A stretch of DNA of 64,000 nt, from contig CAYVZI010000001.1 in the NCBI GenBank assembly GCA_964456475.1, forward strand, positions 11,762 to 75,761, read 5' to 3'. Positions 45,114 to 54,488 of this stretch are shown here, in pieces; position 1 is the stretch's first letter, and each line of letters starts with the position of its first letter. The DNA is from an uncultured Candidatus Saccharibacteria bacterium. GTDB lineage: Bacteria; Patescibacteriota; Minisyncoccia; Phycocordibacterales; UBA9973. A program made the translations under genes and the position numbers. A model generated the notes under the pieces. It had not been told where the DNA came from and ran no database searches. It worked only from the letters and a program-made list of their open reading frames with translations.

Positions 45114-45153
45114 AAAAATCGTTTACTACAAATTTGTAGTAAACGATTTTTAA
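45114..45153. terminator. bidirectional intrinsic terminator (16-bp arms)
   Basis: aaaaatcgtttactacaaatttgtagtaaacgattttt. Confidence 0.8.
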
Positions 45154-46873: not shown

Positions 46874-47272
46874 TTATTCAGCACACTGTTCATTATTTAA
46901 AATCGTCCCTGAATCACAATCTCGGTATGAACACTTTTCCTCACCTGGAATACAACTTAATTCAGGAAAGCATCCTAGCTTCTCTGTAGATTCCTGGCAA
47001 AAAGCGATCGAGGACGCCATTTTTGAAATCTCTTTATAAAAAACTATCTGCTCATCAGGATTAGTTGAACATGTTGGATCTGATACTGGATCACATGAGT
47101 AGACAAAACATTTTTCATTCGCTGGATCACAGGTTACGTAATCTGTAATAAGATAATTTTTCAGTACCACAATCTGATAGTACGTAAAAAAAACAACTCC
47201 TAATACGAGAAGAATGACGAAAGCAAAAAATATTTTATTCTTCATGTCTGGCTTTGTCTCCGTGGTTTCCAT
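46874..47272 (-). CDS. membrane-anchored Cys-rich (12 Cys) protein
   Basis: TM helix followed by repeated C..C spacing, typical of a disulfide-rich extracytoplasmic domain. Confidence 0.5.
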   Translation of the reverse strand: METTETKPDMKNKIFFAFVILLVLGVVFFTYYQIVVLKNYLITDYVTCDPANEKCFVYSCDPVSDPTCSTNPDEQIVFYKEISKMASSIAFCQESTEKLGCFPELSCIPGEEKCSYRDCDSGTILNNEQCAE

Positions 47273-47279
47273 AATGTGA

Positions 47280-48062
47280 TTATATCATCTTTTTTCTAAT
47301 ATCATGCTGTTGATTATGATCGTGGCTATACCAAAATGGATCTTTTTCGTGTTCAATTGGCAAGAGTGGAAAAATAAGTGGCTTTACTCCAAAAATTTCG
47401 GTTGCTTTTCTAAAACTTGGGAGAATTTTTTCAAAAAAAAATCCTCTCTCAGATTCATCATTGAGCATAAAATTTTCAAAAAGCACTCCGTCACAAATAA
47501 AAAGAGACATGAAATAGAGATAGTAATATTCCGTGATATCACGAGTTGTATTAAACCAATCAGTAATATCAACAATATTTTTACTTGCACCCGGATAGAC
47601 AGATGCAAGAAGCTCTCTATGAGTCTCAATAAGGGAATCGCCCCAAATAGTTTTTATGTCGGATAAAGGTTTACCTTCCCAAATGTTGAAATCAACCACT
47701 CGGCAAGTGTCTTTGGTATCGTCAAACATAGTTGCTTTTTCTTTTGAAAATAACAATTTGCAAAGGAAGTATTTATTTTTATTTTTATTTACAAATTTTC
47801 CGGCAGGATATTCAAGGAGTAAGGGTTCCATATTTAGAGAAGAAACTAAGTCCATAAAATATTGCATTTCACGATTTGGAGTTATAATTTCTCTATTAAA
47901 GATTGCTCTTGGTCTTTCAAATGAATGAGGGAACGGATGTTCCTTCCAAAACAACCTAACGCGTTCAACCAGAGCGTGGTCATTCGACCTTCGCTCTATT
48001 TCTTTTTCTAGCTGGGAAAACGGTGTGTAAATTTCCTCAAGGATATCTTGATCTTCACTCAT
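47280..48062 (-). CDS. hypothetical protein
   Basis: 260-aa ORF, the first gene of a co-directional three-gene unit with the kinase. Confidence 0.5.
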   Translation of the reverse strand: MSEDQDILEEIYTPFSQLEKEIERRSNDHALVERVRLFWKEHPFPHSFERPRAIFNREIITPNREMQYFMDLVSSLNMEPLLLEYPAGKFVNKNKNKYFLCKLLFSKEKATMFDDTKDTCRVVDFNIWEGKPLSDIKTIWGDSLIETHRELLASVYPGASKNIVDITDWFNTTRDITEYYYLYFMSLFICDGVLFENFMLNDESERGFFFEKILPSFRKATEIFGVKPLIFPLLPIEHEKDPFWYSHDHNQQHDIRKKMI

Positions 48063-48267
48063 ATTCTGTCTTCTGAATTATAGGTATGTTACGACAAGAC
48101 TACTCTTACTAGTATATTCCTTTTTTTTCAATAAACCACTAGTTTTGGCAATTTATTGATAATATTGACATTATATATTATTTATGCTATTATTTCAAGT
48201 AAATCCCGGTTTAGTGAGATGAGCGTCCAGTCCACCTGGAAATTGATCTCACTAAATCCATTAAAAA

Positions 48268-48762
48268 TTGAAAACAGGTTCGCGACTCGGAAGAATTCTC
48301 TTAGGGATAGGAGCTTTTCTTGCAACGAGTGGTTTCAGCTACTCGTTTGATTATTTTGTTTACCCGATTGTTACCTATTATTTCGGGTTCTCAAAAAGTT
48401 TAATTATTTTATTTCTCGCTGCGCTTATCATGAATTATTTCGTTGTACTTTTGTACGATCTGTTCAAAAAAGATTTTTTTGGATTTGAGGCACTTAAGGA
48501 AATGAAGGAGTCAGGTAACGGCAGAGGTATGATGTACAGAATAATGAAATGGGGCGATATTCCCTTCTTTATCTTTCTTTCATGGTACGACCCAATATTT
48601 GCGGTTTTATACAAAAGGAGGAGTAAAAGCTTTAACGGCTTTAGAAGGAGAGATTATTTTATTCTTGTGCTTAGTACATTAATTGGGTGTATTATCTGGT
48701 CAGGATTTTGGTCAGCAGGTATTGAATTTGTTAAATACATATTTCCACAATGGTTCTCCTAG
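48268..48762 (+). CDS. hypothetical membrane protein (TTG start)
   Basis: 4 predicted TM helices. Its 3' end is duplicated at 50530-50660. Confidence 0.5.
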   Translation: MKTGSRLGRILLGIGAFLATSGFSYSFDYFVYPIVTYYFGFSKSLIILFLAALIMNYFVVLLYDLFKKDFFGFEALKEMKESGNGRGMMYRIMKWGDIPFFIFLSWYDPIFAVLYKRRSKSFNGFRRRDYFILVLSTLIGCIIWSGFWSAGIEFVKYIFPQWFS

Positions 48763-48822
48763 CAATAGCGAGAGCCATTTTTTTATCCTATTTTTAAACA
48801 ATAATGAGAGTCCCTCGTTTCG
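48693..48822 (+). repeat. direct repeat copy 1 (~130 bp; 3' end of the 48268 gene plus 60 bp downstream)
   Basis: About 97% identical to 50530-50660. Confidence 0.85.
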
Positions 48823-49015: not shown

Positions 49016-49579
49016 ATGGGACTTATTGAAATAAAGGGAAAGAGGCTAACCTTGAGAGAAATTTCAAAAGATGATCTGCCCCAATTACTCCTTTGGAGAA
49101 ATTCGGAAATCTTTCAAAAATCATGTCTTTCCTACTCGAAAGACTGCACAATTGAAGAACTTGACAGAGAAATTGACATTTCATATCGTCAAGATAAATA
49201 TGCTCAATTTATTGCTTGGACATCAGACGACAAGCCAGTAGGTACGAACTGGATATATCGATACCACAAAACAAATGGCATAGGATTTACCACAACATTT
49301 GTTGATGAGCAATACAGACAAAGTCATTATTATGCGATTGAAATGTTCGCACTCATTTGCAAATATATGTTTAACGAACTTGCTTGTCGAAAGATTTACT
49401 CAGAAGTTCACGCTGGGAATACTCCTTCAATGAATATCTTCAACAAACTTAATCTTCCTCTTGAAGCGACATTTAAGAATCACTCAAAAGTGGGTTTGAA
49501 CGATTTCGAGGATCTGTTGGTTTACGCCTTGTACAAAGAAGCCTTTGAATCCATGAATATTCCAAAAAAACTTTTGTGA
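49016..49579 (+). CDS. GNAT family N-acetyltransferase (RimJ/RimL-like)
   Basis: GNAT fold pattern including the motif A region. Confidence 0.7.
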   Translation: MGLIEIKGKRLTLREISKDDLPQLLLWRNSEIFQKSCLSYSKDCTIEELDREIDISYRQDKYAQFIAWTSDDKPVGTNWIYRYHKTNGIGFTTTFVDEQYRQSHYYAIEMFALICKYMFNELACRKIYSEVHAGNTPSMNIFNKLNLPLEATFKNHSKVGLNDFEDLLVYALYKEAFESMNIPKKLL

Positions 49580-50382: not shown

Positions 50383-50529
50383 GTCTATATCCTCCTTTTC
50401 AAGCCTAGTTTTATTCCTGAAAACCTTCCGGAACCTTGCTTAATTATATTTTACTATAATAGGAAAGGTTGTCAATGAAAATACTCATATTCAGTGACTT
50501 AAATAAATAAGTACTGCCACAGGCTGTCT

Positions 50530-50660
50530 TATCTGGTCAGGATTTTGGTCAGCAGGTATTGAATTTGTTAAATACATATTTCCACAATGGTTCTCCTAGC
50601 AATAGCGAGAGCCATTTTTTTATCCTATTTTTTAAACAATAATGAGAATCCCTCGTTTCG
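50530..50660 (+). repeat. direct repeat copy 2 (non-coding remnant of the 48268 gene 3' end)
   Basis: Same as copy 1 apart from 3 differences. It has no start codon. Confidence 0.85.
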
Positions 50661-50710: not shown

Positions 50711-52042
50711 TTAGTCTAAAAGAAAATGCATAATGGCTGGTGCTTGAATCAATGCATGCGTTTTACCGTATAGCACAAACTGAGAAATCCCGGCCAGATG
50801 ATTCTTTATAATCTGGCCCGCAATGTGTGCGTCTCGATACCCAGCGATGAATGAGGCTATTTCGCGAATAGGATTTTCTTCATTAGTAGGATCAGAGAAA
50901 CGATAAAAAAGATCTGAATCCTCCTGGTTCAATTGGTGACCTGAAATTCTTTGATGAATTTCGGAAAATATTTCAAGCGAATAAGTCGCTTTTGTTAAAT
51001 CATTGAATTCGTCGATAAAATATTGAATGTATGATACAAAGTCAGGTTTATCAGTCTCTTGCGAATACTGATATGCTCGGTCGCACATAAGCGAATAAAA
51101 AACCAGATTAAGTCCATATTTCTCTGATGCATCATCAATTATCTTCTTTTGATCAGGTTCGTAACAAACGGATCGAATCCCTGCTCCTGAAGCGAGAAAC
51201 ATTAGATATCCTCCTTCACCTCCCTGATTGATTATTGATGAGTGTTTGTCAGAAGCCACGTCACGTAAAGCTCCTTCTATCACTACACATCTGTTTTTTC
51301 CTTCGGTATTTGTCAAAAAAACGTCGAATTTTGATTCAATTTCCGTAAACACTGGATCGTTAGGTTCGTATGAATGACGAACCCCTAGATAATAAAGTGT
51401 GGCTTTAGCCGAATCGTATATTTTAAAATAAACATCTTGGTCAGTCTCAAGTTCTTGGACATTAGCATACGAAACAAGTTTGTCCCGAATGGAATCTATG
51501 GAAGTAATTTGATTCATACTTATACTTCTTTGTATAAATTCATAATCCCTCATAATATTGTACGCTGTTTGATAAAAATCTACGTCTGTTGTTTTAAGAA
51601 GCTCAACTTGTTGTCTGAGAATTTTAAGTGTTTCGTTCGGTGACTTCCAAACAACAAAGTGCCCCACTTCAATTTCATCGGCGGTGAGCTGTAGCTCACC
51701 CTTTCCTCCTACGACATCGACAACATAGCAATGAGTAATTACATGCCTATTCCGTGCCGGACGATAATCATCAATCTCTCCAATATATCCTTGAATTGAG
51801 ACATCACAACCAATCTCTTCCTTGCACTCGCGTAAAATTCCCTCTTCGATCGATTCTCCTTCCTCAATTCCACCGCCGGGCAAAAGAAAAAATCCATGGC
51901 GATTCGTGCCAACAAGCGCAATATTTCCTTCCTGATCAAGGGCAACTACACGTCCGGTTAGTCGGTCAATATACTCAACACCATCAAGTGGCGTGTTGCG
52001 ATTCGGTAATACATCTTTTTCATAATAAGTTTTTAGATGCAT
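50711..52042 (-). CDS. NUDIX hydrolase fused to an uncharacterised ~290-aa C-terminal domain
   Basis: Nudix box LPGGGIEEGESIEEGILRECKEEIG at residues 55-80. The C-terminal domain has no recognised motif. Confidence 0.7.
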   Translation of the reverse strand: MHLKTYYEKDVLPNRNTPLDGVEYIDRLTGRVVALDQEGNIALVGTNRHGFFLLPGGGIEEGESIEEGILRECKEEIGCDVSIQGYIGEIDDYRPARNRHVITHCYVVDVVGGKGELQLTADEIEVGHFVVWKSPNETLKILRQQVELLKTTDVDFYQTAYNIMRDYEFIQRSISMNQITSIDSIRDKLVSYANVQELETDQDVYFKIYDSAKATLYYLGVRHSYEPNDPVFTEIESKFDVFLTNTEGKNRCVVIEGALRDVASDKHSSIINQGGEGGYLMFLASGAGIRSVCYEPDQKKIIDDASEKYGLNLVFYSLMCDRAYQYSQETDKPDFVSYIQYFIDEFNDLTKATYSLEIFSEIHQRISGHQLNQEDSDLFYRFSDPTNEENPIREIASFIAGYRDAHIAGQIIKNHLAGISQFVLYGKTHALIQAPAIMHFLLD

Positions 52043-52563
52043 AGTGATTTTAAAAATTCATCTATTTCTTCATTATCTTTAAAGATATAGACTTTTTTGT
52101 TATGAGAATGACTTAAAACTTTCTCCCGCATCATTTTTGTAGGATATTGCAAAATATATTTTACAAGATTCCAACTAATTCTTTCTCGTGTGCCATCAGT
52201 CTTATCAAAAGGTTGCTCTGTATTAAAAATTCGTTTGAAAGCACGCCAGAGACACAGCCATTTTGGAAAATCCAAAAAAATAATCATTGTGGCTTTTTCA
52301 AACCTATCGTCAATTGTCTTACGGTAATTACCGTCAATAATCCACTCTTCTTGATCTTGTAAATCAGTCACCACTCGCAAAAATCCCAGTTTTGAGTACC
52401 GCTCTTTCCATTTATTGGTCCAGTAATACATATCAAGATGATCCACCTTGCGCCCAAGTTTCTGTCCAATCTTGTTTGCCAAGGTTGATTTTCCCGCACC
52501 CGAAACACCAATTATCGCGATTCGACTGAGATTAGACCTCTCCATAACAGAATAATAACACAT
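52033..52563 (-). CDS. P-loop NTPase/kinase (adenylate-kinase-like, topology-modulation FlaR-type)
   Basis: Walker A IIGVSGAGKSTLA and a small kinase-like size. It overlaps the downstream NUDIX gene by 10 nt. Confidence 0.65.
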   Translation of the reverse strand: MCYYSVMERSNLSRIAIIGVSGAGKSTLANKIGQKLGRKVDHLDMYYWTNKWKERYSKLGFLRVVTDLQDQEEWIIDGNYRKTIDDRFEKATMIIFLDFPKWLCLWRAFKRIFNTEQPFDKTDGTRERISWNLVKYILQYPTKMMREKVLSHSHNKKVYIFKDNEEIDEFLKSLCI

Positions 52564-52891: not shown

Positions 52892-52931
52892 AAAATGGGT
52901 TTGCGACAATTGTCGCAAACCCATTTTTTAA
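52892..52931. terminator. bidirectional intrinsic terminator (15-bp stem)
   Basis: aaatgggtttgcgacaattgtcgcaaacccatttttt. Confidence 0.8.
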
Positions 52932-54057: not shown

Positions 54058-54124
54058 ACGCCGTGCATAATACTATGAATAATAAAATGCGACAAGAAAT
54101 TGGATGATTCCCCTCACTCGTATT

Positions 54125-54475
54125 GGGTCATCCTGAATTTATTTCAGGATCCAGGGCTATAGACAAATCTTTCCATTCTGGATTATGCTCTTGTATCAAA
54201 TTAATCTTCCAATTTCTATGCCATGCTTTTAATTGTTTTTCGCGTTCAATCGCAGAAATTGGATTTTCAGACTCTTCATAATAAACCAGAGTATTAATTT
54301 TATATTGCTTTGTAAATCCGCCTGCAAGACTATGTTTGTGCTCATATATGCGACGGATTAAATCATTTGTAACACCTATGTATAAAGTGCCGTTCTTTTT
54401 GTTTGCCAAAATATAAACATAATAATGTTTATCGTACATACAAATACTGGATCCTGAAATAAATTCAGGATGACC
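54125..54475. mobile_element. 351-bp cassette with perfect 30-bp terminal inverted repeats enclosing a GIY-YIG nuclease gene
   Basis: Left end gggtcatcctgaatttatttcaggatccag (54125-54154). Right end is its exact reverse complement (54446-54475). Each end is itself an 8-bp-stem hairpin. Confidence 0.6.
54128..54439 (-). CDS. small GIY-YIG nuclease superfamily protein (COG2827-like)
   Basis: MYDKHYYVYILANKKNGTLYIGVTNDLIRRIYEHK...REKQLKAWHRNWKINLI. The ORF-track N- and C-terminal residues are translated from the inverted repeats, so the start was trimmed to MYDK. Confidence 0.75.
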   Translation of the reverse strand: MYDKHYYVYILANKKNGTLYIGVTNDLIRRIYEHKHSLAGGFTKQYKINTLVYYEESENPISAIEREKQLKAWHRNWKINLIQEHNPEWKDLSIALDPEINSG

Positions 54476-54488
54476 CAAACACACATAT

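Follow-up and report, generated by a model that had tools for sequence, protein, structure and literature searches.

A lineage-specific fusion of a Nudix hydrolase to a divergent TIKI/TraB-like domain in Patescibacteria

Introduction

Two enzyme superfamilies provide the closest described systems for the gene reported here. The first, the TIKI superfamily, was grouped in a structural study of RRSP, which defined its characteristic set of two histidines and two glutamates (2His/2Glu) together with a conserved basic residue (PMC6254334); represented by PF01963, PF04187 and PF18950 and by the structures 8bqs_DQ, 2g5g, 2rad, 6xcq and 5t09, it has an alpha/beta fold with a parallel sheet. The second comprises the Nudix hydrolases, one of which, from Streptococcus pneumoniae, hydrolyses the peptidoglycan precursors UDP-MurNAc and UDP-GlcNAc (PMC3655063). 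This UDP-X diphosphatase, SP_1669 (PDB 4hfq; PMC3655063), has no second hydrolase fused to it, and literature searches for a combination of a Nudix domain with a TIKI or TraB domain found none. Here we describe a protein that joins a Nudix hydrolase to a domain with the predicted characteristics of the TIKI superfamily, and we weigh what such an arrangement might be for.

Results

The window—the whole 64,000-nucleotide stretch of DNA that was analysed—carries the gene on its minus strand, overlapping a second gene upstream:

50711..52042, minus strand: open reading frame (ORF) of the Nudix fusion, 443 aa, from the ORF list
52033..52563, minus strand: ORF of a FlaR-like P-loop NTPase, at most 176 aa, from the ORF list and a match to PRK08118
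52486-52509, minus strand: P-loop GVSGAGKS of the kinase ORF, aa 19-26
52545, minus strand: likely true start of the kinase, Met7, giving 170 aa
52565..52592, minus strand: putative sigma-70-like promoter (TTGAAA, 16-nt spacer, TATAAT), a consensus match only
52033..52042, minus strand: 10-nt overlap of the two genes, ATGCATCTAA, holding the kinase stop and the fusion-gene start codons
51518..52042, minus strand: Nudix module, aa 1-175, a Nudix fold with two C-terminal helices
51806-51874, minus strand: Nudix box, aa 57-79, GGIEEGESIEEGILRECKEEIGC
50711..51517, minus strand: TIKI/TraB/ChaN/Ere-like domain, aa 176-443, with the stop codon

A sequence-only reading of this stretch had described a 443-aa protein with a canonical Nudix box at its N terminus, a 176-aa P-loop NTPase overlapping it by 10 nt, and a repeat-bounded insertion alongside. 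All three descriptions held. The kinase is probably 170 aa long, because gene callers start it at Met7, both in a contig identical to the window and in members of its cluster. The promoter-like site lies just upstream of the kinase gene, abutting its first ATG, and agrees with the consensus at 11 of 12 positions; kinase and fusion gene are probably co-transcribed in the window strain, on a two-gene transcript whose probable start is this putative promoter. The pair sits in a 6-kb stretch of hypothetical genes with low GC (0.33-0.37 versus 0.41 for the window), flanked by a sensor histidine kinase and DnaJ and set among core genes for CysRS, GatB, MltG/YceG, a sigma factor and RseP. Directly downstream of the pair is the insertion itself, a 1.8-kb segment between 138-nt direct repeats.

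The N-terminal half is a Nudix domain by each of the tests applied: its box includes the catalytic glutamates, it adopts a Nudix fold, and it exceeds the Pfam gathering threshold (PF00293, E 4e-13, 50 bits versus a cut-off of 21.1). The box, GGIEEGESIEEGILRECKEEIGC, fits the consensus GX5EX7REUXEEXGU, with cysteine rather than isoleucine, leucine or valine at the U positions. A more specific assignment did not emerge, the best score against the NCBIfam Nudix equivalogs (MutT, NudG, RppH, NadM-Nudix, NudC and others) being 28.3 bits versus a cut-off of 156. Structural neighbours of this half cover many substrate specificities; SP_1669 (4hfq) ranks 31 among the Nudix structures, is thus not the closest, and is linked to the window protein solely by a sparse analogy of gene context.

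The module is longer than the roughly 150 aa first allotted to it, reaching about 175 aa with a helical extension. Free-standing Nudix proteins of the CPR (165-195 aa) align to 97-99% of it at up to 48% identity, and share both its Nudix box and the two helices that follow the Nudix fold; one set (P0211-P0235) spans the whole 175 aa at 40-48% identity. Because these proteins match the first 175 residues, helices included, we place the domain boundary near residue 176, a methionine that is also the exact point at which stand-alone relatives of the C-terminal half begin. Unlike the window protein, P0211-P0235 are single-domain; they too fall below the NCBIfam equivalog cut-offs, and their source labels are loose and generic ('8-oxo-dGTP diphosphatase', 'ADP-ribose pyrophosphatase YjhB', for example).

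The C-terminal part had been read as about 290 aa free of recognisable motifs. It is instead a domain of 268 aa with many relatives, conserved histidines, glutamates and an arginine, and a predicted TIKI/TraB/ChaN/Ere-type architecture. Direct searches of Pfam, NCBIfam, PADLOC, PHROGs and PDB sequences gave no match to it, and a profile search of the PDB with a 57-sequence alignment returned chance matches to P450 proteins only. A word-indexed search of 5.8 billion clustered proteins with the full protein gave four matches (P0001-P0004), the last an unrelated Nudix protein, while an exhaustive profile search with the C-terminal domain recovered 650 cluster representatives at E <= 1e-3, 324 of them at E <= 1e-10. 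Nearly all 650 are free-standing proteins of 240-290 aa. Their source organisms, where named, are Candidatus Paceibacterota or Parcubacteria, and their product is given as 'hypothetical protein'.

Alignment of 57 members (alignment A3) revealed a near-invariant set of residues, given here in the numbering of the full-length 443-aa protein: H223 (in G..HS), E256 (EGG), E276 (GExG), E295 (PEP), the pair R403-D404, and H429 (YG..HA). H223, E256, R403 and H429 are conserved in 100% of the 57 and E276 and E295 in 96%; the window protein retains every one of the near-invariant residues. When the members were scanned individually against Pfam, 22 of the 57 matched PF01963 (TraB_PrgY_gumN), five DUF5694 and two ChaN, all weakly and all short of the Pfam gathering score (for PF01963 26.8 bits, the best match having 25.8 bits, E 1.2e-5), and the window domain itself has no PF01963 match. 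Matches inspected closely proved collinear with the TraB, DUF5694 and ChaN profiles in their C-terminal R...GxxH region.

Structure prediction, a check proposed with the sequence-only reading, yielded an AlphaFold (AF2) model of the C-terminal domain at pLDDT 96.4, with the alpha/beta core expected of the TIKI type, in which helices flank a parallel beta-sheet. Four of the conserved residues, H223, E256, E295 and H429, lie in the model at the C-terminal ends of beta-strands, positions consistent with a single active-site crevice; the 2His/2Glu and basic-residue set of the superfamily is present, its clustering in space being deduced from these strand-end positions. A Foldseek search against the PDB gave no significant match, the best being a TraB chain (E 0.069, TM 0.38) on which about 160 of the 268 residues superpose. 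Taken together, motifs and model identify aa 176-443 as a divergent domain of the TIKI/TraB/PrgY/GumN/ChaN/erythromycin-esterase hydrolase superfamily, to which the structural link is remote. Because the Pfam matches are weak and the Foldseek result non-significant, we treat it as a new divergent family of that superfamily rather than as a member of PF01963.

Comparison with the superfamily brings out likenesses and differences. Shared are the parallel-sheet alpha/beta fold, the histidine after the first core strand (G..H223), the glutamate ending the next strand (E256), the arginine in a late helix (R403) and the C-terminal G..H429 motif. Peculiar to the new family are two further near-invariant glutamates, E276 and E295; it lacks the glutamate that RRSP carries two residues ahead of its first histidine (E3900-x-H3902), and its members are small and cytoplasmic, with none of the traits for membrane attachment or secretion that TIKI, PrgY and ChaN have.

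In four longer relatives (465-469 aa) the domain is preceded by an N-terminal extension that contains an HExxH motif (VIHEVIHRF). This extension hints, on its motif, that the family may act on peptides or proteins, and it bears on an alternative account in which the TIKI-like half would be a protease with protein or peptide substrates, like TIKI, RRSP and PrgY, and the Nudix half an independent housekeeping or regulatory nucleotide-binding module merely fused to it. Characterised active members of the superfamily are mostly endopeptidases with the same 2His/2Glu and arginine set (PMC6254334); the extension would suggest a zincin peptidase as partner, and one stand-alone member follows tig and clpP. 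However, erythromycin esterases, of the same superfamily, hydrolyse small-molecule esters, so that a protein substrate does not follow from the fold; nothing in Pfam, NCBIfam or the PDB matches the HExxH region; and the window protein has neither a signal peptide nor a membrane anchor such as those of PrgY, TraB and TIKI, nor any candidate protein substrate encoded nearby. We regard a protease of this kind as unlikely.

Elsewhere in Patescibacteria (CPR) the two enzymes are separate; their fusion in the 443-aa protein is lineage-specific. Among the 5.8 billion clustered proteins the fusion was found only in the window's strain cluster and in P0001, a full-length orthologue of 77% identity in which the catalytic residues of both halves are kept. 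P0002 comes from a strain 96% identical, in whose contig (L003) codon 158 has changed from CAA to TAA, so that the gene is split; downstream of this stop the TIKI-like domain opens with a usable methionine, Met176. Only one short contig shows the stop, which may reflect true polymorphism or faulty assembly. It falls between the domains, so the organism may be able to do without the covalent join, or indeed without the Nudix half. P0003, encoded on contig L004, is a stand-alone C-terminal domain with 69% identity to the 268 aa, and the 77 nt upstream of its gene hold no Nudix sequence. A model of the full-length protein reached pTM 0.78, from an alignment with only two fused sequences and in which MAFFT had misplaced 25-50 residues of the single-domain rows; the packing and relative orientation of its two domains are accordingly tentative.

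This distribution is also what would be expected if two adjacent genes had merged once a stop codon and the region between them were lost, giving an accidental and possibly decaying fusion of no special function. Such an origin would fit the restriction to two close lineages, the premature stop with its usable Met176 in the 96% relative, and the absence of a Nudix part from the closest stand-alone relative. Against it, the fusion is intact, with both sets of catalytic residues, across lineages only 77% identical, and the stop on L003 may itself be polymorphic or erroneous; we give a functionless fusion rather little credence.

The gene neighbourhoods of stand-alone homologues offer a second view of the two halves. 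A contig search with a 10-sequence alignment found one locus among genome contigs, one among metagenome contigs and none among viral contigs. The contexts examined included the following:

L007: stand-alone TIKI-like gene adjoining rpsF and ssb
L011: stand-alone TIKI-like gene adjoining Sua5
L013: stand-alone TIKI-like gene following tig and clpP
L006: TIKI-like gene 0.7 kb downstream of a tandem Ddl (D-Ala-D-Ala ligase), near an Asp/Glu racemase
L023: TIKI-like gene between FtsW and MurG
L024: stand-alone Nudix gene adjoining Ddl
L016: stand-alone Nudix gene near ScpA, ScpB and Peptidase_S11
L019 and L020: stand-alone Nudix relatives in unrelated contexts

In L023 a single co-directional array holds homologues of both halves, in the order AspRS, HIT, M3 peptidase, Nudix, ScpA, ScpB, MraY, FtsW, TIKI-like, IS200-like and MurG, its Nudix protein matching residues 10-171 of the Nudix module of the fusion (E 7e-21). 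Peptidoglycan-type neighbours occur in four of about nine distinct contexts, a pattern spotted post hoc; the remainder are unrelated housekeeping surroundings (rpsF/ssb, Sua5, tig-clpP, M20 peptidases). It is because of these sparse neighbours—Ddl, MurI and MraY/FtsW/MurG—that we look to peptidoglycan precursors for a possible substrate.

The upstream kinase presents a different picture. The earlier guess that it is FlaR-like proved apt: its best family is the NCBIfam entry PRK08118, 'DNA topology modulation protein' (E 2.6e-43), aligned over aa 13-173 against profile positions 2-166 of 172. With FlaR/PRK08118 NTPases it thus shares a full-length match and a Walker A motif, at a score (148 bits) below the 215-bit equivalog cut-off. 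To our knowledge the biochemical function of the FlaR/PRK08118 family is itself poorly defined.

A functional module of kinase and Nudix enzyme, as the sequence-only reading had supposed, did not survive the neighbourhood comparison that it had itself called for. At the P0001 locus the gene upstream encodes a 138-aa Nudix protein and no kinase, with a Cys-rich ORF and a nucleoside-phosphorylase fragment downstream, and among the 22 loci examined the only kinase homologue is on the contig identical to the window. Because the kinase is absent at P0001 and at the other loci examined, its coupling to the fusion gene appears strain-specific; judged from these sequences, the kinase is an accidental or recent neighbour and not a conserved partner, and a conserved kinase-Nudix module was rejected.

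Two further accounts would give the kinase a role. In one, also raised by the sequence-only reading, kinase, Nudix domain and effector form a nucleotide-signal or anti-phage defence module acting on a signalling nucleotide or NAD derivative, as the overlap of the two genes, their shared putative promoter, the variable low-GC setting and a match of the Nudix domain to the PADLOC candidate PDC-S07 (E 8e-10) might suggest. That match, however, is confined to aa 50-118, the generic Nudix core; the kinase is missing from the locus of the 77% orthologue and from the others examined; no other defence genes are adjacent, the neighbouring ORFs having no PADLOC match and the kinase weak P-loop matches only; and genes of the C-terminal family are widely found on their own in housekeeping contexts. 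Searches of phage records and plasmid records (tblastn) and of viral contigs found no relatives of the C-terminal domain. A defence system was rejected on the generic nature of the PADLOC match and the empty phage, plasmid and viral searches, and we hold this account to be very improbable. In the other, the locus would be a detoxification patch for xenobiotics or antibiotics, with an Ere-like esterase, the P-loop kinase acting on small molecules and a neighbouring GNAT inactivating compounds while the Nudix domain removes nucleotidylated adducts; this, too, we think improbable, if less so than defence.

Discussion

What is new here is the domain combination itself and an unmodelled CPR family of about 260 aa, both as variants within known superfamilies. 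The comparisons above establish what the two domains are, that their catalytic residues are conserved, that each half exists on its own and that the fusion is rare; the joint function set out below is inferred. The explanation that we judge best for the whole, and hold with moderate confidence, is a fused Nudix and TIKI-type His/Glu hydrolase that probably acts on a nucleotide-linked conjugate. The Nudix half, its box intact, would split a nucleoside-diphosphate-X compound at its pyrophosphate bond, and in the TIKI-like half a water molecule activated by histidine and glutamate would break an amide or ester bond within X, the two halves acting either on one metabolite or on consecutive intermediates.

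Our leading guess for the substrate class, offered by analogy of gene context and with low confidence, is a nucleotide-linked peptide such as UDP-MurNAc-peptide, in which case the enzyme might serve the turnover or quality control of peptidoglycan precursors. Equally speculative is a broader version of the idea, in which the TIKI-like proteins of about 260 aa would constitute a new CPR-wide enzyme family that, with the Nudix family of about 180 aa, degrades or proof-reads nucleotide-linked peptide conjugates, whether UDP-MurNAc-peptide or another nucleotidyl-peptide. Were this true, the rare fusion would be a 'Rosetta stone' for an undescribed two-step pathway in bacteria with minimal genomes.

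CPR/Patescibacteria genomes are rich in conserved proteins to which no function has been assigned. A family of 650 clusters without a Pfam or NCBIfam model can now be given a predicted fold and catalytic signature, and the fusion supplies a testable clue to its substrate, which would be linked to a nucleotide and might be a cell-wall precursor. If the clue is not confirmed, the protein would be an ordinary lineage-specific fusion of two hydrolases; if it is, the TIKI/TraB/erythromycin-esterase superfamily would gain a new activity, and precursor turnover in scavenging-dependent organisms a new step.

Surroundings of the fusion gene

The gene encoding the Nudix-TIKI-like fusion protein is accompanied in the window by repeats, palindromes and small ORFs:

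45114-45151: perfect palindrome, 19-nt arms, no loop, between convergent genes
46874-48762: three ORFs (132, 260 and 164 aa) in the low-GC stretch
48685-48822 and 50522-50660: two copies of a 138-nt direct repeat, 97% identical to each other
49016-49579, + strand: Acetyltransf_3 GNAT protein, between the direct repeats
Also between the direct repeats, - strand: two further ORFs (80 and 175 aa)
52892-52927: perfect palindrome, 18-nt arms, no loop, between convergent genes
54123-54154 and 54447-54478: perfect 32-nt inverted repeat
54128-54484, - strand: small GIY-YIG-like ORF, flanked by the inverted repeat

The direct-repeat copies, which duplicate the 3' end of a membrane ORF (48268-48762), delimit a 1.8-kb segment beside the fusion gene, and a 96%-identical strain (contig L003) likewise carries this segment after the fusion gene. 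In that strain a CAA-to-TAA change (L003 positions 57-59, corresponding to window codon 158, about 51569-51571) divides the fusion gene between its Nudix and TIKI-like parts; Met176 could serve as a restart for the TIKI-like half.

None of the three ORFs at 46874-48762 gave a match in a Pfam scan; the 132-aa product is Cys-rich with a membrane segment predicted at its N-terminus, and the 164-aa product is a membrane protein. The GIY-YIG-like ORF is an insertion between DnaJ and GatB and, together with its inverted repeat, resembles a compact element of mobile or selfish type. The two palindromes are probably bidirectional terminators.

Contexts and architectures of relatives

Two other loci, L001 (encoding a 77%-identical full-length orthologue) and L006 (carrying a stand-alone TIKI-like gene), have these genes near the fusion or TIKI-like gene:

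L001 256-672: second, unrelated Nudix gene (138 aa), upstream of the fusion gene
L001 3163-3582: PNP_UDP_1 nucleoside-phosphorylase fragment, downstream of the fusion gene
L006 2804-5095: 763-aa protein of two tandem D-Ala-D-Ala ligase units, both complete

The surroundings in L001 have a nucleotide-metabolism flavour, unlike those of the fusion gene in the window. The tandem-ligase gene lies a short distance (0.7 kb) upstream of the stand-alone TIKI-like gene, with an Asp/Glu racemase, a GyrI-like/Cass2 protein and a chloramphenicol-phosphotransferase-like kinase close by.

In four relatives recovered by profile search with the C-terminal domain (P0171, P0177, P0178 and P0197; 465-469 aa), the TIKI-like domain is joined to an N-terminal region of ~205 aa. 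Searches of Pfam, NCBIfam and PDB returned no match to this region; it contains an HExxH motif (VIHEVIHRF) and may be a zincin peptidase.
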